Program-made: the position numbers and the translations under genes
Source of the DNA: Rhizobacter sp.
GTDB lineage: Bacteria > Pseudomonadota > Gammaproteobacteria > Burkholderiales > Burkholderiaceae_C
Assembly (NCBI GenBank): GCA_021153565.1
Contig: JAJKJU010000176.1
Location: forward strand, 1,128 to 65,127
DNA length: 64,000 nucleotides
Direction: 5' to 3'
The notes under the pieces: model-generated
What the model was told of the DNA's origin: nothing
Database searches by the model: none
Seen by the model: the letters and a program-made list of their open reading frames with translations, nothing else
Shown: positions 30,460 to 64,000 of the stretch, in pieces
Layout: the number at the start of each line of letters is the position of its first letter
Position numbering within the stretch: the stretch's first letter is position 1

Positions 30460-31310
30460 TTGCCAACGACAACCAACCGATCCACAAGTACTTGCGCGAG
30501 ACCCTCGCACAGGTGCTCGACAGCGACCTCGCGCGCGCCGGAGATGACCTTCCGCTGGTGGAGTTGGGGCTCGATTCCGTGCCCTGCGCGGCCTGGGTCC
30601 GCCTGATCGCACAGCAGTACGGCGTGGCGCTCAGCGTGGCCGAGGTGTGCGAATGCGGCACCTTGCGCGCGGTGGGCCAGCGCGTCAACGCGGCGCTGGC
30701 CTCGCGAGCGACGGCGGGGGAAGGGCGTGCGGCCGACGAGGTGCTGGCCTGCGTGCGGCACAGCCTCGCCGTCGAACTCGACCGGCCGGAAGCCGACCTG
30801 GAAGACGACACGCCGTTCCTCGAACTGGGGCTGGATTCGATCACCGGCGTCACCTGGACGCGCAAGCTCAACACGCACTTCAAGCTCTCGCTGTCGGTGG
30901 CCAAGGTGTACAGCCACCCGACGCTGAGGGCGCTGGCTGCCCACATCGCGGTATCGACCGCGAAGCTCATCCCGGGGGTCGCCGGGCAGGAGCCGAATGG
31001 CAAGGCGCCGGTTCATGCGGGGAAGGCCGAGGCGGCGCCCGCACCTGCACCCGCGCAGCCCGGGGACGCCGTGCCGGGCGATGCGGTGGCACCGGTGGCT
31101 GCCGTGTTGCGCCGCCTGTTGGCGCAGGAGCTGGATGCCGACGAGCGCGGCATCGACGATGCCATGCCGTTCCTGGAGCTGGGTCTGGACTCGATCACTG
31201 GCGTCACCTGGATGCGCAAGATCAACACCCGCTTCGGCCTGGCGTTGTCGGTCGCCAAGGTCTACAGCCATTCGACCATCGCCGGGCTGGCGGCGTTCAT
31301 CGTGCAGCAG
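30447..31310 (+). other. triple ACP, each with Trp six residues after the Ser (beta-branching flag)
   Basis: LGLDSVPCAAW, LGLDSITGVTW and LGLDSITGVTW. The second and third copies are clearly paralogous (VAKVYSHPT / VAKVYSHST). Confidence 0.85.
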
Positions 31311-44400: not shown

Positions 44401-47400
44401 GCTGCCGGCCTTGCCGCTCACCTCGAACGGCAAGATCGACCGCGCGGCCTTGCCCGCGCCGGACCTGCAGGCGCTCGCGCGCAGCGAGCACGTGGCGCCG
44501 CGCAGCGACACCGAACGCCGGCTGCAGCAGGCCTGGGCCGCGCTGCTCGGACTGGACGCGCAGCAGATCGGCATCGGCGACAACTTCTTCGCGCTGGGAG
44601 GGCACTCCCTGCTCGTGCCCCGGCTGGCCGCGCGGCTGGCGCAACAGGGGCTGGCCTGCGAGTTGCGCGCGCTGTTCGACGCCCCGACGCTGGCCGACAT
44701 GGCCGCCGCCATCGAGCGCGGCGGCGCGCAGCAGGCGCAGGCCGTGCCGCCGAGCGCGATCCCCGCGGACTGCGAACGCATCACCCCGGCCATGCTGCCG
44801 CTGCTGGCGCTGTCGCAGGAGGAGATCGACCGCATCGTGGCCGCCATTCCCGGCCGCGCCCCCAACGTGCAGGACATCTACCCGCTGGCTGCCTTGCAGG
44901 AGGGCATGCTCTTCCACCACCTGAAGGACCACAGCCGAGACCCCTACGTGCTCAGCGGACTGTTCTCCTTCGCGGACCGTGCGTGCCTGGAGCGCTTTGC
45001 CCAGGCGCTGCAGTCTGTGATCGACCGGCACGAGGTGCTGCGCACCGCGGTGGTCAGTGCCGGCCTCGCGCAGCCGGTGCAGGTGGTGTGCCGGCAGGCG
45101 CGGCTGAAGGTCGATGCCTTGGCCGTCGCGCCCGGCGAGCGTGCCGAGGACGCGGCACGGGCGCGGCTGGCGGGCTCGCAGGCGATGCCGCTGGAGCAGG
45201 CCCCGCTGATGCGCCTGAAGGTGGCCGAGGACCGCGACAGCGGCACCTGCTACGCCATCTTCAACATGCACCACCTGATCGACGACGCGACCTCGCTGGG
45301 CCTGCTGTTCCACGAACTGGTGGCACACCTGGCGGGCCGGCAGGGCGGGCTGCCGCCGTCCGCGCCGTACCGCGAGTTCATTGCGCGCGCGCAGTCGCAG
45401 CAGGAGGATCCGCGTGCCTTCTTCCGCACAGCGCTGGGCGACGTCGAGGAGCCGACCATCGCCTTCAACCTGCACGACGTGCATGGCGACGGCCGGCGCG
45501 TGCTGGACCTGCGCCGCGAGGTGGACGGTGCCCTGGGCCGGCAGATCCGTGCTTCGGCTCGCCGCCTGCAGGTCAGCCCGGCAGCGCTGTTCCATGCAGG
45601 ATGGGCCCTGGTGGCGGCCGCCTGCAGCCAGCGCGACGACGTGGTGTTCGGCACGGTGCTGTCCGGGCGGCTGCAGGGCACGCCGGGCATCGAGCGGATG
45701 CTGGGCAACTTCATCAACACCCTGCCGGTGCGCGTCCGGCTGAAAGGCTGCAGCGTTCGCGAGCTGGTGATGGACACCGCGCGCTCGCTGCGCGAACTGA
45801 TCCGCTTCGAGCAGGCGCCGCTGTCGCTGGCACAGGATTGCAGCGGCGTGGCCCATGGCGTGCCGCTGTTCAACACCATCCTGAACTACCGCCATCTCGA
45901 ACGCCATGAGCGCATCGACGAGGCGGACCTGGCCGCCTTCGGCATCCGCTCGCTGACCGGCATCCTCGAGCGCAGCAACTATCCGCTGGCGGTGTCGGTG
46001 GACGACCTGGGCGATGCCTTCTCGATCGATGCACAGGTCGAGCAGTCGCAGGATGCGGGGCTGGTGATCGACTACGTGCTGCATGCGATGGCCGGCCTGG
46101 TGGCCGCGCTGGAAGACGAGCAGGCCAGCGCCCGGCCGGCCACGGAAATCGAGGTATTGCCGCCGGCGCTGCGCGAGCAGGTGCTGCTCGGCTGGAACCG
46201 GGCGAGCGACCATGCCGGCCCCCATGGCCTGCACGAGTTGTTCGAGCGCCGGGTCGCGCGCGACCCGCAGGCGGTGGCGGTGGTGTGCGAATCGCGGCAG
46301 CTGAGCTATGGCGAACTCAACGCGCAGGCCAACCGCCTGGCGCGCTACCTCGCCTCGGTGGGCGTGGGGCCGGAGTCCCGCGTGGGGCTTTGCGCGCCGC
46401 GCAGCGAGCGGCTGCTGGTGGGCCTGCTGGCCATCCTCAAGGCAGGCGGCGCGTATGTGCCGATGGATCCGGACTATCCCGTCGAGCGGCTGAACCACCT
46501 GCTGGAAGACAGCGCTCCGCTGCTGATGCTCACCGACGGGCCGCTGGCCGAAGGGCTGGACGCGGGCGAAGTGCCGTGCCTGGACCTCTCGGCCGATGCG
46601 AGTCGCTGGGCCGGCCTGCCGGCCGGCAACCTCTCGTCCATGGAAACGGGCCTGAAGCCGCACCACCTGGCCTACATCGTCTACACCTCCGGCTCCACCG
46701 GAAAGCCCAAGGGCGTGATGGTGGAGCACTGCAACGTGACGCGGCTGTTCTCCGCCACCGACGCCTGGTTCCATCTCGGCCCGCAGGACGTGTGGACGCT
46801 GTTCCACTCGGTCGCCTTCGACTTCTCGGTCTGGGAGATCTGGGGCGCCTGGCTGCACGGCGGCCGGCTGGTCGTGGTGCCGCAGGCGGTGGCGCGCAAC
46901 CCGCGCGCGTTCTTCGACCTGCTGTGCCGCGAGGGCGTGACGGTGCTGAACCAGACGCCCAGTGCGTTCCGCCAACTCTCGGCGGTGCAGCACGAGCAGG
47001 GGCCCGCGCATCGCCTGCGCGTGGTGGTGTTCGGCGGCGAGGCGCTGGAGCTGGCCAGCCTCAAGCCCTGGGTCGAGCGCGAGGCCAATCGCGCGACGCA
47101 GCTGGTCAACATGTACGGCATCACCGAGACGACGGTGCACGTGACCTACCGCCCGATCACGCTGGAGGACATCGAGCGCGGAGGCCCCAGCCCGATCGGC
47201 CGCCGCATCCCCGACCTGCGCCTGTACCTGCTCGATGCCCAGCGGCAACCGGTGCCGCTGGGCGCGGTCGGCGAACTCTACGTGGGCGGTGCGGGTGTCG
47301 CCCGCGGCTACCTGAACCGGCCGGAGCTGAGCGCGCAGCGCTTCCTGGCGGACCCGTTCTGCGGCGTGCCGGGCGAGCGGATGTACCGCTCCGGCGACCT

Positions 47401-49033
47401 GGGGCGCCAGCTCGCAGACGGCGCCATCGAGTACCTGGGGCGCAACGACCAGCAGGTGAAGATCCGCGGCTTCCGCATCGAGTTGGGCGAGATCGAGGCG
47501 CGCCTGGCCGAGCATCCGGCGCTGGACGATGCGCGCGTGGTTGCGCGCGACCATGGCGAGCAGGACAAGCGGCTCGTCGCGTACCTCGTGCCCGGCATGG
47601 AGCAGGCCGGCACCGTGCGGCGGCTGGCGCGGCTGCGGCGCACCGAGCCGCAGGCGATGGCACGGCTGTACCACCTGCCCGGCGGGCTGCCGGTGTTCCA
47701 CCAGAACAAGAGCGAGACGGACTTCGTCTACGACGAGATCTTCACGCACCTGGACTACCTGAAGCACGGCGTGACGCTTCCCGACGGTGCCTGCGTGTTC
47801 GACGCCGGCGCCAACATCGGCCTGTTCTCCCTGTTCGTGCACCAGCGCTGCCACGATGCCACCATCCATGCCTTCGAGCCGATTCCCCCGGTGTTCGACA
47901 CCTTGCGCCTGAACAGCGAACTGCACGGCTGGAAGGGCCGGCTGCACGCCTGCGGCCTGGCCGCGCAGGCGGGCGAGGAGGTCTTCACCTTCTATCGCCA
48001 CAACACGGTGATTTCCAGCAGCATGACCACCGCGCAGCAGGCGCACGAGGTGGTGAAGTCCTTCCTGATGAACCGGCAGGCCGCCGGCGGTGGAGAGGGC
48101 AGCGCAACCGCGCCTGCGGCAGTCAGCGAGACCGACGTCGAGCGGCTGGTCGATGCCCGGCTGGACAGCGAGCAGTTCCGCTGCGCGCTGCGTCCGCTGT
48201 CCGATGTCATCGCCGAGAGCGGCGTCACGCGGATCGACCTGCTGAAGGTCGACGTGGAGAACGCCGAGCTTCAGGTGCTGCAGGGCATCCGCGAGCACGA
48301 CTGGCCCAAGATCCGGCAGCTGGTCGTCGAAGTGCACGACGTGGATGGACGGCTCGCGCTCATCGAGGGCATGCTGGCCTCGCGCGGCTTCCGCGTGTGC
48401 CATGGGCAGGACAACCGGCTGCTGCGCGACACGCGGCTGTACAACCTCTATGCGGTGCGCGAGCCGGCCGGGGCGGCAGCGCCCGTTGTCGTTGCGCAGT
48501 CCTCGGCGGCGTGGCTGTCGGAGGCAGCGCTGCTGGAGGACGTGCAGGCTCGCCTGCGGGCGGGCCTGCCGGCCCACATGGTGCCGGGGGCCTATGTGCT
48601 GCTGGACGAACTACCGCTGACCGGCAACGGCAAGCTCGACCTGCGTGCGCTGCCGGCGCCCGGGACGCAGGCCGGGTGCGCGCCGGATCGCCGCGCACCC
48701 GCCACCGAGCTGGAGCGCATGCTGCAGGAGATCTGGTCCGATCTGCTGGAGCTGGAGCCGTCCCGCCTCAGCGCGGACAGCAACTTCTTCGCCTGCGGCG
48801 GCCACTCCTTGCTCGTCACCCGGTTGGTGAACCGCATCGCGCAGCGCACCGGCGTCGATCTGCCGATCCAGTGCGCGTTCGAGCTGCCCACGCTCGAACA
48901 GATGGCCACCGAGTTGGAGCGCCTGTCGCAATCGGTGCCGGCGGCCATCGCCGACAACGTCGACGCCGTCCTCGCCAGCCTGGCGCTGGTCGAGAACATG
49001 TCCGAGGACGAACTGGACTCTTTGCGGATCTGA
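41459..49033 (+). CDS. bimodular NRPS: C-A(Ser)-PCP-C-A(Thr, interrupted by FkbM-like methyltransferase)-PCP
   Basis: ATG 41459 overlaps the upstream TGA (ATGA), with GAAGGA 8 nt upstream. The track start at 41159 is an open upstream extension. HHLVFDGAS (His 41942-41947). YTSGSTGQPKG. PCP GGHS Ser 44606-44608. HHLIDDATS (45269-45274). YTSGSTGKPKG. PCP GGHS Ser 48806-48808. Confidence 0.92.
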   Translation: MNKNENEILAGFKQGRYSAEKVLEFYRTRAAAEPQRLPLSEGQKGLWLLHQLDPQSDIYNVPVCLRVKGPLRADVLRRAVEHVLAMHPQLTSRVQEHDGEPWLVQRGGQAEFVHQPLELPSGQLPAFLKAEARRPFDLGAVLHRVRLFAVAPDEHVLLLVFHHLVFDGASAPVLLRDLMASHEALAEGRPLPSVVDRANDFPAWESDFLASEEGERCRGHWRRVLGGAQALPVLTLDIERAAPGARPQGATWCSLLDGDAKAAAGRFCQAQGVQPAVFFLAVYQLLLQRYSGLSDIIVGVPSMGRPDLDWADSVGYFVNMMPVRQVVDGQKDFASHLRELKLAMADAMDHAAYPFPCMVKDLNLPSGSSSASPVFQVAYTFQNKNMMYLAADGQARPALGQAVEFIDEVSQEGEFKLLLEVCEHPDRFQLCFKYDAQRFSADDIERLAGHYRVLMEGLLAAPARPVGSQAMVSEAQRRELLALSAGPVRAYSGHACLHQLFERMVQRHGERPALVDGEGRLSYAELNQRANQLAHRLRRHGVGPDTVVGLFMERSLEMVVGLLGIVKAGGAYLPLEPGYPEARIAYMLQNSGARLVLCQPKAAAGRWADAVQRLDVDLGAQGAPASDFFATEPDADIAPRDIGLDSRHLAYVIYTSGSTGQPKGVMIEHRAAVNRIEWMQDEYRLDGSDVVLQKTPFSFDVSVWEFFWPLLAGARLVMAPPGVHRDPGRLLALIREAGVTTLHFVPPMLELAVAEPGWSACTTLRRIFCSGEALPPELPQRHHALNPAPLYNLYGPTEAAIDVSHWPCPRDHAGGVVPIGKPIQNIQLYVLDDQRQLQPPGCAGQLYIAGDGLARGYLNRPELSALHFIDNPFGGARSRMYGTGDLVRWLPDGQLEFLGRIDGQVKIRGHRVELGEIEAALAQHPDVRACVVLARRDAGGQQLAAYVVLAEGAQPQGCQARLAQHLSGLLPDTMVPSAFVVLPALPLTSNGKIDRAALPAPDLQALARSEHVAPRSDTERRLQQAWAALLGLDAQQIGIGDNFFALGGHSLLVPRLAARLAQQGLACELRALFDAPTLADMAAAIERGGAQQAQAVPPSAIPADCERITPAMLPLLALSQEEIDRIVAAIPGRAPNVQDIYPLAALQEGMLFHHLKDHSRDPYVLSGLFSFADRACLERFAQALQSVIDRHEVLRTAVVSAGLAQPVQVVCRQARLKVDALAVAPGERAEDAARARLAGSQAMPLEQAPLMRLKVAEDRDSGTCYAIFNMHHLIDDATSLGLLFHELVAHLAGRQGGLPPSAPYREFIARAQSQQEDPRAFFRTALGDVEEPTIAFNLHDVHGDGRRVLDLRREVDGALGRQIRASARRLQVSPAALFHAGWALVAAACSQRDDVVFGTVLSGRLQGTPGIERMLGNFINTLPVRVRLKGCSVRELVMDTARSLRELIRFEQAPLSLAQDCSGVAHGVPLFNTILNYRHLERHERIDEADLAAFGIRSLTGILERSNYPLAVSVDDLGDAFSIDAQVEQSQDAGLVIDYVLHAMAGLVAALEDEQASARPATEIEVLPPALREQVLLGWNRASDHAGPHGLHELFERRVARDPQAVAVVCESRQLSYGELNAQANRLARYLASVGVGPESRVGLCAPRSERLLVGLLAILKAGGAYVPMDPDYPVERLNHLLEDSAPLLMLTDGPLAEGLDAGEVPCLDLSADASRWAGLPAGNLSSMETGLKPHHLAYIVYTSGSTGKPKGVMVEHCNVTRLFSATDAWFHLGPQDVWTLFHSVAFDFSVWEIWGAWLHGGRLVVVPQAVARNPRAFFDLLCREGVTVLNQTPSAFRQLSAVQHEQGPAHRLRVVVFGGEALELASLKPWVEREANRATQLVNMYGITETTVHVTYRPITLEDIERGGPSPIGRRIPDLRLYLLDAQRQPVPLGAVGELYVGGAGVARGYLNRPELSAQRFLADPFCGVPGERMYRSGDLGRQLADGAIEYLGRNDQQVKIRGFRIELGEIEARLAEHPALDDARVVARDHGEQDKRLVAYLVPGMEQAGTVRRLARLRRTEPQAMARLYHLPGGLPVFHQNKSETDFVYDEIFTHLDYLKHGVTLPDGACVFDAGANIGLFSLFVHQRCHDATIHAFEPIPPVFDTLRLNSELHGWKGRLHACGLAAQAGEEVFTFYRHNTVISSSMTTAQQAHEVVKSFLMNRQAAGGGEGSATAPAAVSETDVERLVDARLDSEQFRCALRPLSDVIAESGVTRIDLLKVDVENAELQVLQGIREHDWPKIRQLVVEVHDVDGRLALIEGMLASRGFRVCHGQDNRLLRDTRLYNLYAVREPAGAAAPVVVAQSSAAWLSEAALLEDVQARLRAGLPAHMVPGAYVLLDELPLTGNGKLDLRALPAPGTQAGCAPDRRAPATELERMLQEIWSDLLELEPSRLSADSNFFACGGHSLLVTRLVNRIAQRTGVDLPIQCAFELPTLEQMATELERLSQSVPAAIADNVDAVLASLALVENMSEDELDSLRI
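42943..44462 (+). other. adenylation domain, hand-extracted code D-V-W-H-F-S-L-I-D (Ser-type, EntF-like)
   Basis: Read from FDVSVWEFFWPL, TTLHFVPPML, IFCSGEAL and NLYGPTEAAIDVS. Confidence 0.7.
46225..48662 (+). other. adenylation domain, code D-F-W-N-V-G-M-V-H (Thr-type), interrupted between the A8 region and A10
   Basis: Read from FDFSVWEIW, TVLNQTPSAF, VVFGGEAL and NMYGITETTVHVT. The A10 motif LTGNGKLD reappears only at ~48620, after an insert of roughly 310 aa. Confidence 0.75.
47600..48540 (+). other. FkbM-family-like methyltransferase domain inserted in the Thr adenylation domain
   Basis: ACVFDAGANIGLFSLF (~47797-47830) matches the FkbM-type D-x-G-A-N-x-G motif. IDLLKVDVENAELQVLQG lies downstream. 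The insert sits between KRLVAYLVPG and LPAHMVPGAYVLLDELP. Confidence 0.7.
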
Positions 49034-55000: not shown

Positions 55001-58000
55001 GGGCCAGCGCCTGTACCGGACCGGCGACATCGTGCGCTGGCGGCCCGATGGCCTGCTGGAGTTCGTGGGCCGCGTGGACGACCAGGTCAAGGTGCGCGGC
55101 TTCCGCATCGAGCTGGGCGAGATCGAGAGCGCGCTGCAGGCCCACCCGGACCTCAGGAGCGCCGTGGTCGCCACCGAGGCCGCGCAGGGCTCCGACAGCA
55201 AGCGCCTGGTGGCCTACATCTGCCCGAACGAGGACTACCTCGAGCGCGCCGCGCAGACGCTGCGGCCCGACAGCCTGGAGCGCTGGAACGAGCTGTTCGA
55301 GGACGAGTACGCCCGCGGCCGGCACGACGATGCCGCGCCGGGCGACCTGAACCTGGTGGGCTGGAACAGCAGCTACACCGGCGAGGCGATCCCCCAGGCG
55401 CAGATGGAGGAATGGGTCGACGGCGCGGTGCAGCGCATCCGGGCGCTGCGGCCGCGCCGCGTGCTGGAGATCGGTTGCGGCTCCGGCCTGCTGCTGCTGC
55501 GCTACGCCGGCGAGTGCGAATCGGTGCATGCGAGCGACATCTCCGCCGCGGCCCTGGCCGGCGTGCAGCGCGAGCTGAGCCGCCGGCGGTGGGATCACGT
55601 CAGCCTGTCGCAAGGCGACGCGCTGGACTTCTCGGCGCTCGCGGGCCGCACCTTCGACACGGTGGTCATCAACTCGGTCGTGCAGTACTACCCGAGCCGG
55701 GCCTACCTGGAGCAGGCGCTGCAGGGGCTGTGGCCCTATATCGAGGAAGGTGGCCGCATCTTCATTGGCGACGTGCGCAACGCCGACCTGATGTCGGCCC
55801 ACTTGTGCGCGGTGGAGCGCAGTCGCATGGTGGGCGGGGTGCCCGCCGCCACGCTGGCCGGCCGCCTGTACCGCCGCCGCATGCAGGAGGGCGAGCTGCT
55901 CGTCAGCCCGAGCTTCTTCATGCACCTGGCGCGGCGGCTTGCCGGCGCCGGCCGCACGGACATCCTGCTCAAGCGTGGCCTCGGCGACAACGAGATGCTG
56001 AGCTACCGCTATGACGTGGTGCTCGCCAAGGGCGCGGCGCAGCCGGCCCCGGCACTGGCCTGGTTGCCGGCGTCTTCGCCCGACGACGTGCGCCAGCTGC
56101 TGGAGCGCGGCGCCCCCGAGCGCTTTGGCGTGCATGGGCTGCGCAACCCCCGCATCCGCGAGGACGTGGCGGCCGCCGACGTGCCGGGCCGCGCACCGGC
56201 GGGCCAACGGGTCGATCCGCTGGGGCCCAGCCGCTGGTCCGAACAGGCCAGGCAGGAGGTCGAGGCCTTCGACGCGCTGATCGAGCATGCCGCGGCCCGA
56301 GGCTACCGCTGCGAAGCCACCTGGTCGCAGGACGTTCCCGATGGCGTGGACCTGCTCTTCGGCCGCAGCGAGCTGCCCGCCGTGCAGGCGCGCAGCCCCT
56401 ATGCCCAGACCTACTGGACCAACCACCCGCAGATCGCCCGGCTGGGCCAGGAGTTGTCGCGTGGCGTGAAGCAGCACCTGTCGCGCACGCTGGCCGAATA
56501 CATGGTGCCCAACATCTTCGTGGTGCTGGAGGCACTGCCGCTGACGCCCAACGGCAAGGTCGACAAGCGCGCCTTGCCGGCGCCTGAGGAGGAGGACGTG
56601 CAGAAGGAGGCCTATGCCGCACCGCGCAACGGCGAGGAACAGGCGCTGTGCCGCATGCTGCAGGAGATCCTCGGCCTGCAGCGCGTGGGCATCCGCGACG
56701 ACTTCTTCGAACTCGGCGGCCACTCGCTGCTGGCCACGCGGCTGACCGCCCGGGTCCGGCAGGAGCTGGGCAAGGATTTGCCGCTCAAGGCCGTCTTCGA
56801 CGGCCGCACGGTGGAGCGCATCGCGGCCCTGGTGCAGCAAGAGAAGGCCGAGGCGCAGACGGTGCTGCCGCGCCGCGTGGCCGCGGACTCGGGGGCGCTC
56901 GCCCCGATCTCCTTCTACCAGGAAGAGGATCTGTGGTTCCTGCGTCGGCGCCCGCACCTGGCGCTGGGCCACGACAACGTGCAGCTGGTGTTCCGCCTCA
57001 TCGGCGAGCTGGACCTCGACGCTTATGCGCGCAGCTGCCAGTTGCTGGTCGAGCGTCATGGCGTGCTGCGCACGAGCTTCGTCGAGAAGGACGGCGTGGC
57101 GTGGCAGAAAGTGAATCCGGCCGAGGGCTTTCAGGCGGGCATCGAGAGGATGCCCGACGAGAATGCGCTGGAGGAGTTCCTCAAGGCCGAGAAGGCGCGG
57201 CCATTCGAGCCGGCCGGGCCCTTCACCGTGCGCATCCACCTGTTGGTGTTCTCGGATCTGGAGCGCGTGGTGGTCGTGACGCGGCCTTGGGGCATCTTCG
57301 ATGGCTACTCGACGCCCGTCGTGCTTTTTCCCGACCTGTCCGCGATCTACGCGGCCATCAGTCTCGGGCGGGTGCCGCAGCTGCCGCCGCCGCCCCTGCA
57401 GTACGTGGACTTCGCGCACTGGCAACGCGAAACCTTCACGCCCGAGGTGCTGCAGCCCAAGATCGACTACTGGACGCAGCGGCTGGCTGGCGCGCCGCGC
57501 GACCTGCGGTTGAAGACCGACTACCGCCGGCCGTTGGTGCTCTCCGGCAAGGGCGCGGCGGTGCATTTCCTGGTCCCGCCCAAGTTCATCAAGAAGCTCA
57601 AGGACTTCGGCCGGCAGCATGACTTCTCGCTGTACGTGGTGATGCTGTCGGCCTACGCCATCTTGCTGGCCGACTACACCGACGAGACCGACATGCTGAT
57701 CGGCTCGCCGATCAGCAACCGGTCGCGGCCGGAGCTCGAGCAGATGATGGGCCATTTCGTCAACGTGCTGGTCATGCGCGCCGACGTATCGCAAGGGCAG
57801 CGCTACATCGACGTGCTGTCGCGCATGAAGGTGACGGCGCAGGAAGGGCTCAACCACGCCGACGTGCCGCTGCGCTGCGTGGTGCAGAGCCTGTCGCTGC
57901 CCACGCTGCCGGGCCAGGCCTCGTTGTTCCACGTGATGTTCAACCTGGTGACGCTGCCGGAGGACTTCTCCAACCGCTACAACAACCAGGCCATCGTGCA

Positions 58001-58244
58001 CTACCGGCCGGAGTCCGAGACGGCCAAGCTGGACCTCAACATGGCCATGCAGGACACCAACATGGGCCTGGCCGCCTCCATCGAGTACAGCATCGACCTG
58101 TTCGCCAGGACGACCATCGAAAAAATGGCGGCCCGCTACCGACAGGTGCTGGCCGACATGGTCGCCAACCCGCTGGCCCTGCTGTCCGAGCGCTCGGACC
58201 TTGCCGTCGCCCTGGAGGAGGGCGATGAAAAGCCGGCGGCCTGA
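49047..58244 (+). CDS. NRPS: C-A(Thr)-PCP-C-A(unassigned, interrupted by N-methyltransferase-type domain)-PCP-C-like (degenerate active site)
   Basis: Three in-frame ATGs at 49047, 49053 and 49059 follow GGGGAAG; the first was taken as the start. HHSVSDGWS (49587-49592). PCP GGHS Ser 52239-52241. HHLIEDASS (52902-52907). FTSGSTGRPKG. VLEIGCGSG. PCP GGHS Ser 56724-56726. The terminal C-like domain reads RPWGIFDG. Stop TGA at 58242-58244. Confidence 0.9.
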   Translation: MNMNMTQQDIQAVLARIRSLPPKQQQALVRMLKQQGVDISSAQAIGRRPASQEPAPLSFAQQRLWFLAQLEGHSAHYNIPMALRLAGRLDRPALVHALSAIVERHEALRPRFVEVDGVPYQRTEPAVNFAVQEETLPEGTDLRALCEDEALRPFDLGAGSLVRMRLVACGPEEHVLLVTMHHSVSDGWSLGVFFRELVSLYGAFSRGEPSPLQPLPIQYADYAHWQREWLSGQVQERQIEYWKQKLAGVDPQLMLPTDRPRPPVKTYTGAHEPLQCSAALLEGLKALGRAHESTLYMTLLSVWAVLLHRYSRQTDIAIGTPLANRNRPEVENLIGFFVNTQVMRADLDGQPSFAQLLARMKRTALEAYGHQDVPFEAVVDALQLERSLSHSPVFHVMFALQEAQAERSHRLADLEVSFVDFDYKITKFDLTLDLRETPDGLAGSIEYNCDLFDRATVQRMIRHYVALLEAVVAEPQAPVSRLVWLGPQEREQVVRTWNPCADHAPAQGMHELFEAQVARTPDAVAVSCDGAQLSYAELNRRANRVAHALRGLGVKPDTLVALCVERSLEMVVGLLGIVKAGGAYVPVDPAYPAQRIRYILEDSGAGLLLTQAALAPRLPLATQRVVLLDGTGQGGEDLLAGQPETDIPVAESGLRPSNLLYVIYTSGSTGHPKGVLVQHDNVARLFHATEATFRFGASDTWTLFHSFSFDFSVWELWGALLHGGRLVVVPKTVAQSPSEFYRLLVDESVTVLNQTPSAFEQLVAVDQAERGRLSLRTVVFGGEALNPAILAPWFERHGESIDMVNMSGITETTVHVTCKLLSAGDAAGQRSIVGRKLPDLRLYVLAEHMEPLPVGVTGEMYVGGAGVARGYLNRPELTAQRFVDDPFAAQPGERLYRTGDLARWLPDGNLEFIGRADHQVKIRGFRIETGEIESQLAQSPQVQSCVVLVREDRPGQKQLVAYVVPREPLQDDLHQALGRHLRERLPDYMVPTAFVVMQAFPLTSNGKLDRSALPAPDKTAYAADEYVTPATEAERVLATLWAELLGFEPGRISARDNFFALGGHSLLITVLVARLKEKGYDATVRSVFGSDTLADLASQIEQGASSEAYVVPPHRVPAGCERLTPDMLTLVTLDQRELDAVAGTVPDGAANVQDIYPLVPSQQGILFHHLIDPDNDPYIIPVLLAADGPVACDAFVNALRRLLARHDVMRTAVVTSGLLEPVQVVYRQAELPIEHLVLEPGRDAMAQAQALLERPRRMPLDRAPLLQLTIAADPASQRRFILLNVHHLIEDASSLRLIFAELRASMAGRLEQIGPVPVPYRDFVAHTLHQVRTNDAEGFFRRRLAEVSEPTIPFRLANVHGDGRTIRDLRRSLPAALDASIRRQAQRLRISPASLFHAAWSLVVAGASGRDDVVFGTVLSGRLQGVPGVERMLGNFINTLPLRVVLKDRSALQLVLDTDAALKELIEYEQSSLIMAQRCSGLGSDVPLFTSMINVRHFEGGEGEPLQESGVRVLGSVDRTNYPLGVSVDDLGTAFSVNVQVDEAVSTETVTGSFQAALQGLADALQEGRAEALPALSIDVVPADERRRQLVDWNRTDTPYPADQVLPGLFDEQVLRSPDAIALVFGTQQLSYAQLNARANKVAHFLHEAGVRPDTVVGLCMERSVDMVAGLLGILKAGGAYLPIDPAYPRERIAGMLQDSGISLLLSQTRVALTLPDFDGEVIHLDAGVRASDGAKVLVNQPGHDLPREHVGLQPHHLAYVIFTSGSTGRPKGVMVEQRGVVRLVRNPDYCPSGAHTVMLQHSSISFDVGSQEVLGPLLNGGRLVLHQGETKDIVQLLDHVERHEVNMMCLSAAFLPAFVQEAAHRRLPLQCLCVGGEAFSARDVLALYERHPGLSVVNGYGPTENSIASTCHVIPQDIAPDAPIPIGRPIAQSTAYVVNRRMRLLPCGAVGELCVGGVGVARGYLGHPELTRERFVPSPFEGSEGQRLYRTGDIVRWRPDGLLEFVGRVDDQVKVRGFRIELGEIESALQAHPDLRSAVVATEAAQGSDSKRLVAYICPNEDYLERAAQTLRPDSLERWNELFEDEYARGRHDDAAPGDLNLVGWNSSYTGEAIPQAQMEEWVDGAVQRIRALRPRRVLEIGCGSGLLLLRYAGECESVHASDISAAALAGVQRELSRRRWDHVSLSQGDALDFSALAGRTFDTVVINSVVQYYPSRAYLEQALQGLWPYIEEGGRIFIGDVRNADLMSAHLCAVERSRMVGGVPAATLAGRLYRRRMQEGELLVSPSFFMHLARRLAGAGRTDILLKRGLGDNEMLSYRYDVVLAKGAAQPAPALAWLPASSPDDVRQLLERGAPERFGVHGLRNPRIREDVAAADVPGRAPAGQRVDPLGPSRWSEQARQEVEAFDALIEHAAARGYRCEATWSQDVPDGVDLLFGRSELPAVQARSPYAQTYWTNHPQIARLGQELSRGVKQHLSRTLAEYMVPNIFVVLEALPLTPNGKVDKRALPAPEEEDVQKEAYAAPRNGEEQALCRMLQEILGLQRVGIRDDFFELGGHSLLATRLTARVRQELGKDLPLKAVFDGRTVERIAALVQQEKAEAQTVLPRRVAADSGALAPISFYQEEDLWFLRRRPHLALGHDNVQLVFRLIGELDLDAYARSCQLLVERHGVLRTSFVEKDGVAWQKVNPAEGFQAGIERMPDENALEEFLKAEKARPFEPAGPFTVRIHLLVFSDLERVVVVTRPWGIFDGYSTPVVLFPDLSAIYAAISLGRVPQLPPPPLQYVDFAHWQRETFTPEVLQPKIDYWTQRLAGAPRDLRLKTDYRRPLVLSGKGAAVHFLVPPKFIKKLKDFGRQHDFSLYVVMLSAYAILLADYTDETDMLIGSPISNRSRPELEQMMGHFVNVLVMRADVSQGQRYIDVLSRMKVTAQEGLNHADVPLRCVVQSLSLPTLPGQASLFHVMFNLVTLPEDFSNRYNNQAIVHYRPESETAKLDLNMAMQDTNMGLAASIEYSIDLFARTTIEKMAARYRQVLADMVANPLALLSERSDLAVALEEGDEKPAA
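50568..52095 (+). other. adenylation domain, code D-F-W-N-V-G-M-V-H (Thr-type)
   Basis: Read from FDFSVWELW, TVLNQTPSAF, VVFGGEAL and NMSGITETTVHVT. Confidence 0.7.
53850..56580 (+). other. adenylation domain of unassigned specificity (hand code D-V-Q-C-C-G-G-I-A), interrupted by a methyltransferase
   Basis: Read from SFDVGSQEVL, NMMCLSAAFL, LCVGGEAF and NGYGPTENSIAST. The A10 motif LTPNGKVDKRAL lies at ~56550. Confidence 0.6.
55225..56480 (+). other. NRPS N-methyltransferase-type domain inserted in the adenylation domain
   Basis: GWNSSYTGEAIP, VLEIGCGSGLLLL (~55461-55500) and NEMLSYRYDVVL correspond to the classical NRPS N-MT signature motifs. Confidence 0.7.
56900..58190 (+). other. C-terminal condensation-like domain with degenerate HHxxxDG (reads PWGIFDG)
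   Basis: VVVTRPWGIFDGYS: a Pro codon (57285-57287) and a Trp codon (57288-57290) occupy the two His positions. The rest looks like a C-domain fold (YVDFAHWQRE, IDYWTQRLAG, MGHFVNVLVMR). Confidence 0.7.
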
Positions 58245-58290: not shown

Positions 58291-58536
58291 ATGCAACAGG
58301 AAGACATCACGAAACTGCTGGCCGCCGCCATCCTGGAGCTGCGGCCCTCGCTGGAGGGACGGCCCCTTGGCCCCAGCGATTCGCTGGAGGCGCTCGGCCT
58401 GGACTAGATGGAGCGCGCCGACATCGTCATGCTCGTGCTCGAGCACATGAACCTTCGGATCCCGCTGGTCCAGACCTTCGGCCCCCGCAACATCGGCGAA
58501 CTCGCGAGGCTGCTGAGTGAGAAATCCGCCGCCTGA
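58291..58536 (+). pseudogene. free-standing donor acyl carrier protein of the beta-branching cassette (AcpK / CurB / mupirocin donor-ACP type), interrupted by an in-frame TAG at the Ser attachment codon
   Basis: ATG 58291 ...SDSLEALGLD, then TAG (58405-58407), then MERADIVMLVLEHMNLRIPLVQTFGPRNIGELARLLSEKSAA, then TGA (58534-58536). Everything is in one frame and totals 81 codons plus the stop. The stop falls where the G(L/A)DS Ser belongs. The layout resembles Bacillus AcpK as I recall it (...LGADSVDRAEIITMVLEDLSLKIP...NIGELAEVL). Confidence 0.8.
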
Positions 58537-59731
58537 ATTGCTGGTGACCGGGATGGGCGTGGCCACGGCCGTAGGCGTGGGCCTGCCCGCCTTCGAGCAG
58601 GCGCTGTTCGAGGGCGCGCATCGCTTTGCCGTGATGCGGCGCCCGGGTCGCCAGCGCGACACCGCCTTCATCGGCGCCGAGATCGCTTCGGTCCCGAGCA
58701 GCGGCCGGCTGCCTGCCCATGTGCTGCGCACCGCCTCGCTGAGCTCTCGGGTGGCGCTGGCCACGCTGGAGCAGGCGTGGCAGGAGGCTGCGCTGGACGA
58801 CACGGACCCGCAACGCGTGGGCCTGGTCGTGGGCGGCAGCAACCTGCAGCAGCGCGAACTCGTCCTGCTGCAAGAGCGCCACCGCGACGCGCCCGGCTTC
58901 ATGCCGCCCAGCTATGCGATGACCTTCCTGGACAGCGACGTCTGCGGCCTGTGCACACAGGCCTTCGGCATCCGCGGCTTTGCGCATGCCTGCGGCGGCG
59001 CTTCCGCGGCGGGACAGCTGGCGATCATCGAGGCCGCGGAGGCGGTGACTGCCGGCCGGGTGGATGCGTGCGTCGCCCTCGGCCCGATGATGGACCTGTC
59101 GTATTGGGAATGCTTGGCCCTGCAGTCCAGCGGCGCGATGGTGTGCGACGGCGCGCAGGACCCTGGCGGCGCCTACCGACCCTTCGACCGCCGGCATGCC
59201 GGCTTCGTCTACGGCGAGGCCTGCGCAGCCCTGGTCGTCGAGCGCGCCGGGGCGCGGCGGCTGCCGGCGGCCGCTCATGGGCGCATCGCCGGCTGGGCCG
59301 TGCAAATGGACGCCAACCGCAATCCCAATCCTTCGGTGGAAGGCGAGGCCCAGGCCGTTGCCGCCGCGCTGGCCCATGCGGGCTGGCAGCCGAAGGACGT
59401 GGACTACGTGAACCCGCACGGCACCGGCTCGCCGCTGGGCGACACCACCGAGCTGAAGGCGCTGCGCGCCTGCGGTCTCGCGCACGCGGCGATCAACGCC
59501 ACCAAGTCCATCACCGGCCACGGCCTCGCGGCCGCGGGCGCGGTGGAGGCGGTGGCGACGCTGGTGCAGATGAAGCGGGGGTGGCTCCATCCCACCCGCA
59601 ACCTCCGCGAGCCGCTGGATCCGGACTTCGGATGGGTGGCCGACACGTCCCGCGAGATGCACATCGGACGCAGTCTCAGCCTCAGCATGGGCTTCGGCGG
59701 CATGAACACTGCCCTGTGCCTGACCCAATGA
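58517..59731 (+). CDS. decarboxylating ketosynthase of the HMGS cassette (KS with active-site Cys replaced by Ser; PksF/CurC/MupG type)
   Basis: The GTG 58517 start must lie upstream of the conserved LLVTGMGVATAVG. The active-site region reads ACGGASAAGQ, and Ser 59003-59005 aligns by hand with the FabF catalytic Cys. Both His motifs are kept (NPHGTGS, SITGHGL). It sits immediately upstream of the HMGS. Confidence 0.85.
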   Translation: MRNPPPELLVTGMGVATAVGVGLPAFEQALFEGAHRFAVMRRPGRQRDTAFIGAEIASVPSSGRLPAHVLRTASLSSRVALATLEQAWQEAALDDTDPQRVGLVVGGSNLQQRELVLLQERHRDAPGFMPPSYAMTFLDSDVCGLCTQAFGIRGFAHACGGASAAGQLAIIEAAEAVTAGRVDACVALGPMMDLSYWECLALQSSGAMVCDGAQDPGGAYRPFDRRHAGFVYGEACAALVVERAGARRLPAAAHGRIAGWAVQMDANRNPNPSVEGEAQAVAAALAHAGWQPKDVDYVNPHGTGSPLGDTTELKALRACGLAHAAINATKSITGHGLAAAGAVEAVATLVQMKRGWLHPTRNLREPLDPDFGWVADTSREMHIGRSLSLSMGFGGMNTALCLTQ

Positions 59732-59738
59732 ATCCAAC

Positions 59739-59744
59739 AAGGAG
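59739..59744 (+). promoter_or_regulatory. Shine-Dalgarno-like site for the HMGS gene
   Basis: AAGGAG lies 7 nt upstream of ATG 59752. Confidence 0.65.
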
Positions 59745-59751
59745 AACCCCC

Positions 59752-61014
59752 ATGCCCCCCGTCGGTATCGAGGCAATGAACGTGTTCGGCGGCTGCGCAG
59801 TCGCGGACGTGATGGAACTGGCCCGCCACAGGCAGCTGGAACCGTCCAGGTTCGAGAACCTGCTGATGAAGGAGAAGACGGTCGCATTTCCGTTCGAGGA
59901 CCCGGTGACCTTCGCGGTCAACGCCGCCAAGCCGATCGTCGACGCGCTCTCGCCGCAGGAGCGCGACCGCATCGAACTGCTGATCACCTGCACCGAATCG
60001 GCCTTCGACTTCTCCAAGTCGCTCAGCACTTACCTGCACGACCAGCTGGGGCTGAACCGCAACTGCCGCATGTTCGAGTTGAAGCAGGCCTGCTATGCGG
60101 GCACCGCGGGCCTGCAGATGGCGGCGAACTTCATCCTCGCCGGCACCTCGCCCGGCGCCAAGGCGCTGGTGGTGGCCACCGACATCTCTCGCTTCGTCAT
60201 CGAGGAGGGTGGCGACCGGTTGTCCGCCGACTGGTCGTACGCCGAGCCCAGCGGCGGGGCCGGCGCGGTGGCCATGCTGGTCAGTGACCAGCCCACGGTG
60301 TTCCAGCTCGACGTGGGCGCCAGCGGCTACCACGGCTACGAGGTGATGGACACCTGCCGGCCGGGGGCGGACACCGAGGCCGGCGATGCCGACCTGTCGT
60401 TGCTGTCCTACCTCGACTGCCATGAGCAGTCCTTCGCCGAGTACTGCCGCCGTGTCGAGGGCGTGAACTATCGCAAGACCTTCCAGTACCTCGCGTTCCA
60501 CACGCCCTTCGGCGGCATGGTGCGAGGCGCGCACCGCTCGATGATGCGCAAGGCCGGCAACGCCACGCCGGGCGAGATCGCCGACGACTTCGAGGTGCGC
60601 GTGCGGCCGGGGCTCGCCTACTGCCAGCGGGTGGGCAACATCATGGGAGCGACCGTGTTCCTCTCGCTGGCCAGCACGGTGTGCAACGGCGACTTCAACC
60701 GCCCGGCGCGCATCGGCTGCTTCTCGTACGGGTCAGGCTGCTGCGCGGAGTTCTACAGCGGCGTGGTCACAGCCGAGGGCGCCGCACGCCTGAAGGCGAT
60801 GGACATTGCCGGCCACCTGGACCGCCGCTACCGCCTGCCGATGGACGAGTACGAGCGCCTGCTCGACGACAGCAGCCTGGTGCGTTTGGGCACCCGCAAC
60901 CAGTCCTTCGACCTGGCGGCGGCGAGCCGCATCGTGCAGGCCGCTGGTGGCACGCCGAGGCTGGTGCTGAAGGCCATCCGGGAGTTCCACCGGGAGTACG
61001 AGTGGGTGCAGTGA
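59752..61014 (+). CDS. HMG-CoA-synthase homologue for polyketide beta-branching (PksG/CurD/MupH type)
   Basis: AAGGAG (59739-59744) lies 7 nt before ATG 59752. The N-terminus MPPVGIEAMNVFGG...FENLLMKEKTVAFPFEDPVTFAVNAAKPI...IELLITCTES and the catalytic-Cys context ELKQACYAGT (Cys 60091-60093) are typical of PKS-associated HMGS. The track start at 58777 is an artefactual extension. Confidence 0.9.
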   Translation: MPPVGIEAMNVFGGCAVADVMELARHRQLEPSRFENLLMKEKTVAFPFEDPVTFAVNAAKPIVDALSPQERDRIELLITCTESAFDFSKSLSTYLHDQLGLNRNCRMFELKQACYAGTAGLQMAANFILAGTSPGAKALVVATDISRFVIEEGGDRLSADWSYAEPSGGAGAVAMLVSDQPTVFQLDVGASGYHGYEVMDTCRPGADTEAGDADLSLLSYLDCHEQSFAEYCRRVEGVNYRKTFQYLAFHTPFGGMVRGAHRSMMRKAGNATPGEIADDFEVRVRPGLAYCQRVGNIMGATVFLSLASTVCNGDFNRPARIGCFSYGSGCCAEFYSGVVTAEGAARLKAMDIAGHLDRRYRLPMDEYERLLDDSSLVRLGTRNQSFDLAAASRIVQAAGGTPRLVLKAIREFHREYEWVQ

Positions 61015-61784
61015 ACTACCGGACGCTGAAGCTGCGGCGCCAGGGGCCGGCGTGGCATGTGCAGCTGAACCGGCCGGAGGCCGGCAACACGATCGACGCC
61101 CGCATGGTGGGCGAGCTGGAGGACGTGCTGGGCACCCTCGTCCCCGGCTCGGGCGCTTCCATCCTGGTGCTCGAAGGCCAGCCGGAGGTGTTCAGCCTGG
61201 GCGCGGACTTCGGGGAAATCGGCGCGGCCGCGGCCGACGGGCAGGGCATGGCCTTCGATCCGCAGCAACTGTTCGGCGTGCTCGAGCGCCTGGCCTTCGG
61301 CGACGTGATCTCGGTGGCCCACGTGCGCGGCAAGGCCCATGCCGGTGGCGTGGGCCTCGCGGCGGCTTGCGACGTCGTGCTCGCCGACGCGAGTGCGGTG
61401 TTCAGCCTGTCCGAGCTGCTGTTCGGGCTGGCGCCGGCGGTGATCTTTCCGTTCCTCCTGCGGCGCCTGGGCTTCCAGCGCGCGCACTACCTTGCCAGCA
61501 CGACGCAGCCGGTGGGCGCGCGGCAAGCCTGTGAATGGGGTCTGGTGGACGCCTTCGAGGAACGAAGCGATCTGCTGCTGGCCCGGCACCTGTCGCGCAT
61601 GCGCCGCATGCCGGCCGCCGCGGTCGCGCGCTACAAGGCCTACGTGCGCGAGCTTGCCGCGCTGCCGGCCGGTACGCGCGAGGCCGCCTTGCGGCTGAGC
61701 AAGGCCATGTTCGCCGACCCGCAAAGCATGGCCGCGATCCGGCGCTATGCGGAGCAAGGGCTGTTTCCGTGGGAAACGGCCTGA
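61011..61784 (+). CDS. crotonase-fold enoyl-CoA hydratase, ECH1 (dehydratase) type of beta-branching cassettes (PksH/CurE type)
   Basis: GTG 61011 overlaps the HMGS stop (GTGA). LNRPEAGNTID, GADF, FSLSELLFGLAPAVIFPFLLRRLG and the C-terminal GLFPWETA match my recollection of the PksH-type ECH1, not the PksI-type ECH2. The exact start (GTG 61011 or a downstream ATG) is uncertain. Confidence 0.8.
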   Translation: MNYRTLKLRRQGPAWHVQLNRPEAGNTIDARMVGELEDVLGTLVPGSGASILVLEGQPEVFSLGADFGEIGAAAADGQGMAFDPQQLFGVLERLAFGDVISVAHVRGKAHAGGVGLAAACDVVLADASAVFSLSELLFGLAPAVIFPFLLRRLGFQRAHYLASTTQPVGARQACEWGLVDAFEERSDLLLARHLSRMRRMPAAAVARYKAYVRELAALPAGTREAALRLSKAMFADPQSMAAIRRYAEQGLFPWETA

Positions 61785-61946
61785 GAGGCTGAGAGTATTT
61801 CGATCATGCCCGCTCATCACGCCAGAAGGCGCCCGCTCGTCGTTGCAAATGCCCGCCATAGCCCGAGCTATGGCTGTGCTTTGCGCCTGGATCGGCCACC
61901 TTCTGGCGCGCTGCTCGGGCACGCTCGAAAAACTCTCAGCCTCTGA
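61781..61946. repeat. MITE/REP-like long imperfect palindrome, complete copy, in the ECH-AT intergenic region
   Basis: The 13-nt terminal inverted repeats are AGAGGCTGAGAGT (61784-61796) and ACTCTCAGCCTCT (61932-61944). An internal inverted repeat pairs CGCCAGAAGG (61820-61829) with CCTTCTGGCG (61898-61907). The central hairpin is GCCATAGC-ccga-GCTATGGC (61855-61874). By hand alignment about 52 of 71 arm positions are complementary. The ECH stop TGA (61782-61784) lies inside the repeat. Confidence 0.8.
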
Positions 61947-61974
61947 ATCCAGACATCTCTAGAAGGGAAGAAGA

Positions 61975-63906
61975 ATGAAGACCAAGACCGTATGCATGTT
62001 CCCGGGCCAAGGCTCGCAATTCGGGGGCATGGGCGAAGCACTGTTCGAGCGCTACCCCGACCTGGCGGCGCAGGCCGACGCCTGCCTGGGCTACTCGCTG
62101 CGCGAGCTGTGCGTGCGCGATCCGGACCACGTGCTCAGCCACACGCAGTACACCCAGCCCGCGCTGTACGTCGTGGGCGCGCTGGCTTACCTGGACTGGC
62201 GGGCCCAGGGCCATCCGGCGCCCGACTACGTGGCCGGTCACAGCCTGGGCGAGTACTGTGCGCTGTTCGCCGCGGGTGCGTTCGACTTCATCACCGGGCT
62301 GAAGCTGGTGAGCAGGCGCGGCGAGCTGATGAGCCGCGCGCCCAAGGGCGCGATGGCGGCCATCCTCAACATCGACCCGCCGAGCGTCGAGCGCGTGCTG
62401 GCTTCGCTGCCATTCAGGAACATCGACCTGGCCAACATCAATTCGCGCAAGCAGTGCATCATCTCCGGCCTGTACGAGGAGATCCACGCGCCCCAGCTGC
62501 AACAGGCCTTCGCCGAGGCGGGCGCAAGCGTCCTGCCGCTGAACGTGAGCGCCGCATTCCACTCCCGCTGCATGAAGGACGTGGAGGGCGAGTTCGGCCG
62601 CTTCCTCTCGCAGTTCAACTTCGGCGAGCTGAAGATCCCGGTGGTGGCCAACTACACGGCACGCCCGTATCCGTCCACCGGCTATTTGGACCTGCTGCGC
62701 TTGCAGATCTCCCATTCGGTGCGCTGGTACGAATCGGCCTCCTGGCTGCTGGCGCAAGGCTGCACCCACTTTCAAGAGCTGGGTGCCGGCGAGGTGCTTG
62801 CCAGGCTGCAGGTCAAGATCGCGGCCGATCCGCTGGTGCTGCCGCTCGACGAGGCGCCAGCCGCGGCCGCGCCATCCACGGCGCCGCGCCCCGGCGCGAA
62901 TCCGGACCTGCAACCGGGCATGCGCCCCGCGCCGCGCCGCCGGGCGAGGCTGGTGTTCATGTACGCGGGGCAGGGCAGCCAGTACTACCGCATGGGCCAG
63001 CAGCTGTACGACACCCACGAGGTGTTCCGCGGCGCCATGGACCGCTGCGCGCAGGAGTACCGCGAGCTCACCGGGCAGTCGCTGCTGGACCTGCTCTACC
63101 ACGGCCCGGGCAAGGGCACGCCCTTCGTCGAGTTGCAAGGCTCGCATGGGGCGCTGTTCAGCATCGGCCATTCGCTCACCGAAACCCTGCGGGCCGAAGG
63201 CTTCGAGCCGGACGCAGTGCTGGGGCACAGCCTGGGCGAGTACGTGGCGTGCGCCGTCGCGGGCGCCCTGGATTGGCGTCAGGCGCTGCGCCTGGTCCTG
63301 CGCCAGTCGACCCTGTTCGGGCCGCTGGTGGGGCAGGGAGGGCTGCTCAGCGTGCTGGCCGAACCGCGCTTGTTCGAGCAGCGTCCGGCACTGTTCGGCG
63401 ACCTCGCGCTCGCCGGCGTGAACTACCAGGGCAACTTCCTGCTCAGCGGCCGGCATGCGGCGCTGGAGCTGGCGCAGGCCCGGCTGGAGGATGAAGGCAT
63501 CGTCTGCATCCGGCTGCCGGTGCCGGCGGCCTTCCATTCGCCGGAACTCGATCCGTTCGAGCAAGCCTTCGTGAGCGCGGTGCGGGAGATGCCCATCCAC
63601 CGGCCGCGGCTGCCGATGTATTCGGCTGCCACCGCGGCGGTGCTCGGCTCCGAGTGGCTCGAAGACCATGCCGCTCATTTCTGGCGCGTCGTGCGCGAGC
63701 CGATCCGCTTCGACCGGCTGATCGACTGCGCGTTCGAGGAGGCGGGCGACGTCTATTTCGTGGACCTCAGTGCAAGCGGCTCCTTCGCCAACTTCATGAA
63801 GTATGGCTTCCCGGGCCGCCAGCCTTGCCGCAGCGCGATCAACCAGTTCGGCAATGACAAGGCCTCCCTGTCCGCGCTGCTCGCCGATCTGCGTGCGCTC
63901 GGCTGA
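61975..63906 (+). CDS. discrete trans-acting acyltransferase didomain (AT-AT; one half may be an acyl-hydrolase proofreader)
   Basis: ATG 61975 follows GAAGGGAAG. First half: FPGQGSQFGGMG, GHSLGE (Ser 62242-62244), SAAFHS. A Pro/Ala-rich linker spans ~62830-62945. Second half: YAGQGSQYYRMG, GHSLGE (Ser 63229-63231), PAAFHS. This is the only GQGSQ/GHSxG acyltransferase signature pair in the window. Confidence 0.9.
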   Translation: MKTKTVCMFPGQGSQFGGMGEALFERYPDLAAQADACLGYSLRELCVRDPDHVLSHTQYTQPALYVVGALAYLDWRAQGHPAPDYVAGHSLGEYCALFAAGAFDFITGLKLVSRRGELMSRAPKGAMAAILNIDPPSVERVLASLPFRNIDLANINSRKQCIISGLYEEIHAPQLQQAFAEAGASVLPLNVSAAFHSRCMKDVEGEFGRFLSQFNFGELKIPVVANYTARPYPSTGYLDLLRLQISHSVRWYESASWLLAQGCTHFQELGAGEVLARLQVKIAADPLVLPLDEAPAAAAPSTAPRPGANPDLQPGMRPAPRRRARLVFMYAGQGSQYYRMGQQLYDTHEVFRGAMDRCAQEYRELTGQSLLDLLYHGPGKGTPFVELQGSHGALFSIGHSLTETLRAEGFEPDAVLGHSLGEYVACAVAGALDWRQALRLVLRQSTLFGPLVGQGGLLSVLAEPRLFEQRPALFGDLALAGVNYQGNFLLSGRHAALELAQARLEDEGIVCIRLPVPAAFHSPELDPFEQAFVSAVREMPIHRPRLPMYSAATAAVLGSEWLEDHAAHFWRVVREPIRFDRLIDCAFEEAGDVYFVDLSASGSFANFMKYGFPGRQPCRSAINQFGNDKASLSALLADLRALG

Positions 63907-64000
63907 GAGGCTGAGAGTATTTCGATCATGCCCGCTCATCACGCCAGAAGGCGCCCGCTCGTCGTTGCAAATGCTCGCCATAGCCCGAGCTATGGCTGCG
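63903..64000. repeat. second copy of the same element, cut by the window edge
   Basis: 63903-64000 matches 61781-61878 at 96 of 98 positions. The mismatches are 61853 C vs 63975 T and 61877 T vs 63999 C. The AT-AT stop TGA (63904-63906) occupies the same repeat position as the ECH stop. Confidence 0.85.

Follow-up and report, generated by a model that had tools for sequence, protein, structure and literature searches.

The window analysed here is a stretch of 64,000 nucleotides of contig C176 (JAJKJU010000176.1) from a Rhizobacter sp. genome, and it carries a line of polyketide synthases (PKSs) and nonribosomal peptide synthetases (NRPSs) of the trans-acyltransferase (trans-AT) type. The last NRPS gene of this line, P0001 (49047..58244, + strand), codes for 3065 amino acids (aa) and is the counterpart of HtmB2 (3091 aa) from the hangtaimycin (htm) cluster of Streptomyces spectabilis. 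According to Pfam and the published list of htm genes (Table S4), it consists of a condensation (C), adenylation (A) and peptidyl carrier protein (PCP) module, a second C-A-PCP module with an N-methyltransferase (N-MT) inserted into its A domain, and a terminal condensation-fold domain, C_T, which is the subject of this report. On the same strand, the S-adenosylmethionine (SAM)-dependent N-MT insert of the last A domain spans 55458..55820 (Pfam Methyltransf_12/25/31, P0001 residues 2138-2258) and is the equivalent of the N-MT of HtmB2 module 18 (PMC10624959). The last PCP domain follows at 56640..56834 (Pfam PP-binding, residues 2532-2596), with its phosphopantetheinyl Ser encoded by the codon tcg at 56724-56726, and C_T occupies 56850..58241, comprising 464 aa including the linker and a short tail (Pfam, phmmer, Foldseek, VIA-align and tree).

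A hallmark of C_T is its C3 motif, TRPWGIFDG (57279..57305, + strand), in place of the canonical MHHxxxDG. The frame 49047-58244 translates through this region as ...VVVTRPWGIFDGYS..., with cgg (57282-57284) coding for Arg, cct (57285-57287) for Pro, tgg (57288-57290) for Trp and gat-ggc (57300-57305) for the Asp-Gly pair. Canonical LCL-type domains are recognized by HHxxxDG, the second His being catalytic, whereas C_T has Pro and Trp in these places: when C_T is aligned with 40 other C domains, the columns occupied by P146 and W147 hold His in 100% and 95% of these, respectively, and the Asp-Gly and the next Ser of the motif are retained. The fold as such is complete; C_T covers positions 7-443 of the 456 of the Pfam Condensation profile (224 bits), its AlphaFold model has a mean predicted local distance difference test score (pLDDT) of 87.6, and the C2, C4 and C5 motifs are intact. 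An earlier note on this DNA had described a full-length C fold after the PCP Ser at 56724, the sequence RPWGIFDG, and Pro and Trp at the positions of the two His, all of which is borne out. The His pair, which according to the same note might be restored by re-sequencing, is not found in a second database record of the protein (P0002, on another contig): this record differs by five substitutions elsewhere (99.8% identity) and keeps RPWGIFDG, so that the motif is not a read error.

The open reading frame (ORF) ends with TGA at 58242-58244, 15 residues past the C_T fold. Release by a type I thioesterase (TE) relies on an alpha/beta-hydrolase TE domain after the last carrier protein; here the ORF stops at 58244 with C_T in that place, and a profile search of the genome gave no match to Pfam Thioesterase (PF00975) on contig C176 and seven matches elsewhere. 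The observation that no TE follows, also made in the earlier note, is correct.

C_T can be assigned to a small family that is already described. A phmmer search of the PDB ranks 8z0q first, an entry entitled 'Special condensation domain in NRPS' (375 bits, E 5e-111), and VVTRPWGIFDG stands in both of the aligned sequences; the next match, and the best ordinary C domain, is DhbF with 181 bits, followed by X domains (105-110), Bamb_5915 (55) and the C_T of TqaA (42.8). Comparison of the AlphaFold model with the PDB by Foldseek retrieves 'Cryo-EM structure of dimer/tetramer HtmB2-CT' (8z0q/8z0r, TM 0.87/0.92), and VIA-align superposes the model on 8z0q with a Z of 44 and a root-mean-square deviation of 2.1 over 439 residues; it is the sequence only, and not these structural scores, that sets HtmB2-CT apart from ordinary C domains, as Txo2 reaches a Z of 43. 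The two domains are 42-43% identical. Structures of HtmB2-CT (PDB 8Z0Q/8Z0R/8Z0S) were released on 2025-03-19, and the hangtaimycin authors had labelled the domain as terminal condensation domain in a line that has no TE at its end (PMC8456789 supplement). On these comparisons the domain in the window is a hangtaimycin-type terminal condensation domain, and the absence of a TE is therefore expected.

The genes around P0001 repeat the layout of the htm cluster. In the list of Luo et al. 2021 (PMC8456789 Table S4), HtmA1 (4821 aa), HtmA2 (7387 aa) and HtmA3 (4748 aa) are accompanied by HtmB1 (2548 aa; C-A-PCP, C-A-OMT-PCP) and HtmB2 (3091 aa; C-A-PCP, C-A-NMT-PCP-C_T), and HtmB2 is followed by HtmA8, an acyl carrier protein (ACP), HtmA6, a ketosynthase (KS, 407 aa), HtmS, a 3-hydroxy-3-methylglutaryl-CoA synthase (HMGS, 427 aa), HtmH, an enoyl-CoA hydratase (ECH), and HtmA7, a tandem acyltransferase (AT-AT, 647 aa). 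Gene order and sizes in the window match this list from the HtmB1-like gene through the AT-AT, all on the + strand. The HtmB1 counterpart (41459..49033) codes for 2524 aa, compared with 2548 aa in htm, and is organized as C-A-PCP, C-A(FkbM-type MT)-PCP (Pfam; Table S4). Downstream of P0001 lie the donor ACP of the beta-branching cassette (HtmA8 counterpart, 58291..58536; Pfam PP-binding, with a TAG read through), a free-standing KS (HtmA6 counterpart, 58517..59731; 404 versus 407 aa), an HMGS homologue (HtmS counterpart, 59737..61014; 425 versus 427 aa), an enoyl-CoA hydratase (a shorter HtmH counterpart, 60990..61784; Pfam ECH_1) and a discrete tandem AT-AT (HtmA7 counterpart, 61975..63906; 643 versus 647 aa; Pfam Acyl_transf_1 in two stretches, Table S4); the KS and HMGS, both recognized by Pfam, are 63% and 74% identical to those of L085, a metagenomic relative described below. 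Because the gene order is that of htm and HtmB2 is the last module there, the line is judged to end at C_T and not outside the window. The genes beyond the AT-AT on this contig are unrelated, and the alternative that the true end of the line is encoded beyond the window, raised in the earlier note, can be set aside.

Upstream, the agreement with htm is close in plan and incomplete in detail. The second megasynthase, a PKS/NRPS of 7591 aa, has two C and four KS domains in htm order, and the visible part of the first PKS gene (KS-KR-ACP, KS-DH-ACP, KS-ACP, where KR is ketoreductase and DH dehydratase) resembles HtmA1 modules 2-4. The third PKS (30447-41462, 3671 aa) consists of a triple ACP, KS-DH-ACP, KS-DH-KR-ACP and KS-ACP, and thus has three KS domains compared with four in HtmA3 modules 11-14; the polyketide middle should therefore differ from that of hangtaimycin. 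The htm cluster differs further by its P450, of which there is none adjoining the cluster in the window, and by its longer ECH: the sole crotonase of the cassette (60990-61784) is 264 aa long against a listed 786 aa for HtmH, and some of the ECH function present in htm is apparently absent or supplied from another locus. The donor ACP carries a TAG stop at its phosphopantetheinyl Ser (58405-58407), where its homologue in L085 has a normal Ser (GANSMDR). Contig C275 (L107; 17.6 kb, 69.4% GC) bears on its reverse strand the beginning of a trans-AT PKS: about 230 aa are followed by ACP, KS-DH-KR-ACP, KS-KR-CMT-ACP and KS-DH-KR..., and the gene runs off inside a (Pro-Gln)n linker. C176 itself opens, ahead of window base 1, with part of a (Pro-Gln)n linker and then an ACP. 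It is very likely that C275 and C176 adjoin and that the assembly broke at the repeat; the line probably starts on C275, and the first PKS probably has two modules more than HtmA1.

Two metagenomic relatives add to this small family. A metagenome scan with the back-translated RPWGIFDG yielded 20 places, of which 19 are chance and one, L085, is real: it covers the last 338 residues of a C_T, TRPWGIFDG included, then an intact donor ACP, KS and HMGS, the C_T and ACP being 41.6% and 47.5% identical to those of the window. A further member, P0266, was found among shorter proteins; it is an A-NMT-PCP-C_T fragment with TRPWGIFDG, 43% identical to the window in C_T and 50.5% across the module, and it stops after C_T. 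The L085 and P0266 proteins end 15-20 residues after the fold. The nine residues TRPWGIFDG are identical in the window, HtmB2-CT, L085 and P0266 at an overall identity of only 41-69%, the motif region being the best-conserved stretch of the family and the motif being the same in two phyla; the reading frame is open in all four. Besides the exchange of HHI for PWG, the family shares about 20 departures at positions where ordinary C domains reach a conservation of 75% or more (the window and L085 were compared, and the N-terminal motifs were taken from the alignment with HtmB2-CT). Among them are C1 Arg to Glu, Tyr42 to Asp, LPxDxPRP to L(K/R)TDYRRP, PIANR to P(I/V)(S/T)NR, HQD to H(A/K)D and LQN to LV(T/P). 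Polar residues specific to the family also include Arg/Lys at 222/226, Ser/Thr at 289 and His/Tyr at 302, and Asp151 is conserved. Since these departures are common to the C_T sequences, the family is considered to be constrained in its own way and not decaying.

In a maximum-likelihood tree, the window, P0266 and L085 form a C_T clade of their own inside the LCL-type C domains, with a Shimodaira-Hasegawa-like approximate likelihood ratio test (SH-aLRT) support of 100, the tree being built with these three C_T sequences and without HtmB2 itself or reference X, Cy, E and fungal C_T sequences. The sister of this clade is the first C domain of P0001 (SH-aLRT 95). This domain (49197-50525) is also the closest ordinary relative of C_T, with 39% identity and 302 bits, and the two observations together hint at an origin of C_T by duplication inside an ancestral gene.

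Broader searches added no further members. A domain-only search of 1.84 billion representatives and a 'near' search of a 5.8-billion collection returned no close relative beyond the window's own record, both being swamped by giant NRPSs in which several C domains sum up. Scanning of genome contigs with window-specific peptide words gave only ordinary C domains of at most 37% identity, tblastn against the PLSDB plasmids gave nothing above 36%, and 40 genomes from the genus, family and order of the host yielded no orthologue, the best match having 36% identity; the ESM Atlas contained generic condensation clusters only.

Taken together, these data argue, with a probability of roughly two in three, for C_T as the hangtaimycin-type last catalytic station of a trans-AT PKS/NRPS line collinear with htm. 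Its most likely role, by analogy with the hangtaimycin system, would be chain release by cyclisation to a terminal N-acyl diketopiperazine, which could proceed in the following steps. The full chain would reside on the last PCP as acyl-...-Thr-N-methyl-Xaa-S-PCP, with the Thr probably dehydrated to dehydrobutyrine. This PCP would enter the donor site of C_T, where no downstream acceptor carrier is available. With no His base to activate an incoming amine, C_T may instead hold the N-methylated and hence cis-prone dipeptidyl end in a position that lets the penultimate residue attack the thioester through its nitrogen. This would set the product free with an N-acyl-2,5-diketopiperazine at its end, as in hangtaimycin. 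The change from His-His-Ile to Pro-Trp-Gly, along with the approximately 20 other replacements of the family, may serve to reshape or close the unused acceptor side.

The chemistry of hangtaimycin and the specificity of the penultimate module are in line with this proposal. Read by hand, the binding pocket of the penultimate A domain gives the code DFWNVGMVH, which we take to be of the Thr type and which would fit the Thr-derived dehydrobutyrine of hangtaimycin. Hangtaimycin has a terminal diketopiperazine, the N-methyl group of which comes from the MT of module 18 (PMC10624959). Its co-metabolite TDD is the N-methyl tryptophan-dehydrobutyrine diketopiperazine, and hangtaimycin degrades to TDD on standing (PMC10624959; PMC9475180). 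The C domain between the last two modules of the window (52290-53700, motif HHLIEDASS) is nearest to McyB, PvdL and DCL-type domains, with no epimerase domain preceding it; it is a candidate for the step from Thr to dehydrobutyrine.

Several observations weigh against a catalytic, cyclising C_T. Both catalytic His residues are lost, and no part of the cluster is less conserved than C_T in the comparison with L085 (41.6% identity versus 63-74% for KS and HMGS). The code of the last A domain with its N-MT insert, DVQCCGGIA, is unassigned, so that the end group of the product is not fixed. A search of the literature retrieved no report that HtmB2-C_T catalyses release; the Htm papers trace the diketopiperazine and TDD to the same machinery and go no further (PMC10624959; PMC9475180).

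The strongest of the alternatives, itself unlikely, holds that C_T is non-catalytic and serves to oligomerise the megasynthase or to shelter the thioester on the last PCP, with ring closure of the N-methylated dipeptidyl end occurring unaided. A purely structural role of this kind is favoured by the ease with which N-methyl dipeptidyl thioesters cyclise, by the loss of both His residues and by the dimeric and tetrameric state of the deposited HtmB2-CT structures. However, the attacking nitrogen is acylated, and as an amide it would be a poor nucleophile, making unassisted ring closure improbable; moreover, the active-site motif is the best-kept stretch of the domain, which would be unexpected if its surfaces alone mattered.

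Considerably less probable is an X-domain-like recruitment platform for a trans-acting tailoring enzyme, with release left to, for example, a type II TE or an amidase. X domains are likewise terminal C folds deficient in His and appear among the structural matches of C_T (4tx2, Z 39), and genes for a P450, a TEII and an amidase belong to the htm cluster (PMC8456789 supplement). The sequence match to X domains, however, amounts to 105-110 bits compared with 375 for HtmB2-CT, and HtmP acts on free deoxyhangtaimycin (PMC10624959; PMC9475180). Nor does the neighbourhood offer a partner: the earlier note proposed to look among the flanking genes for a type II TE, a hydrolase or a P450, and the 70-kb contig yielded neither a P450 nor a TE or amidase; the only P450 of the genome, which is 92% complete, lies on contig C270 in a stretch of 50-52% GC beside an unrelated TE. 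Unlike an X domain, C_T has its best match elsewhere, and its contig has neither P450 partners nor a TE. On C270 (L105), a 267-aa thioesterase and this P450 stand side by side at 5001-7082; the pair was considered as a missing piece of the cluster and rejected on account of the GC content of the stretch. Of the interpretations put forward in the earlier note, non-canonical release by a terminal C-like domain is thereby retained, in the form of an HtmB2-C_T homologue, whereas recruitment and an end of the line outside the window are not. The remaining proposal, a decayed condensation-domain remnant from which the chain leaves by hydrolysis, would account for the lost HH dyad and for C_T being the fastest-evolving part of the cluster, but it is very improbable given the full-length fold with intact C2, C4 and C5 motifs, the frame open in all four relatives and a substituted motif that is identical across two phyla and in four sequences of 41-69% overall identity.

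The host is placed as an uncultured member of the Burkholderiales, represented by a metagenome-assembled genome, because the RpoB of the genome is 91-92% identical to those of Methylibium, Roseateles, Caldimonas and Aquabacterium. The cluster contig belongs to this genome, since a repeat of about 160 bases that flanks the AT-AT gene (61785-61975 and 63907-64000) is matched 694 times by blastn, on 244 of the 381 contigs. C176 is an outlier in base composition, its GC content of 71.0% being the highest of all contigs above 20 kb (the next has 65.3%, the genome 62.6%), and this suggests horizontal acquisition of the cluster from a high-GC donor; the GC content of the htm cluster is reported as 74.4%. 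A wider scenario, which is tentative and somewhat short of an even chance, would be that the Pro-Trp C_T domains are a rare, separate branch of the condensation superfamily that descends from a duplicated neighbouring LCL-type domain, has given up its His base for the acylation of an amide nitrogen in N-acyl diketopiperazine release, possibly acts as a dimer or tetramer, and has passed between Actinomycetota and Burkholderiales as part of the entire cluster; the window would then encode a so far unknown congener of hangtaimycin made by a Gram-negative host.

The domain type itself is already known; the new point is a hangtaimycin-like cluster in an uncultured betaproteobacterium, the first such line outside actinomycete-like sequences in the searches made here. 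As the set of modules differs from htm, the cluster probably makes a new congener, of a class for which hepatoprotective, antiviral and antibacterial effects have been reported. In annotation, the sign of a hangtaimycin-type end is a terminal C fold that carries TRPWGIFDG and follows C-A-NMT-PCP in a hybrid line of the trans-AT type; it should not be taken for a broken module or a truncated cluster. For enzymology, the four sequences of 41-69% identity define the constrained residues of a His-less C_T and thereby a short list for mutagenesis.

Terminal C folds are used in different ways by the systems with which C_T can be compared. (i) The C-terminal C domain of OzmL, from the trans-AT PKS/NRPS line of oxazolomycin, shares the C-A-MT-PCP-C plan, the reported absence of the catalytic His and the lack of a TE in the cluster (PMC9057759); the likeness is one of architecture, and the proposed ring closure gives a beta-lactone rather than a diketopiperazine (PMC9057759). 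(ii) The glycopeptide X domain (teicoplanin Tcp12; PDB 4TX2/4TX3) shares with C_T the terminal position, the deficiency in His and a C fold that serves for something other than condensation, but it sits before a TE and recruits Oxy P450s, whereas the contig of the window has neither TE nor P450. (iii) The fungal C_T of TqaA (PDB 5DIJ/5EGF) resembles the role proposed here in being a terminal C fold that releases its product without a TE by intramolecular attack; it is only a distant match (42.8 bits) and probably a separate lineage, the C_T of the window nesting in bacterial LCL-type domains in the tree above. (iv) HtmB2-C_T of Streptomyces spectabilis differs in its actinomycete host and is only about 42% identical, yet, exactly as in the betaproteobacterial window, it closes a C-A-NMT-PCP module, the protein ends right after it, and TRPWGIFDG is identical.

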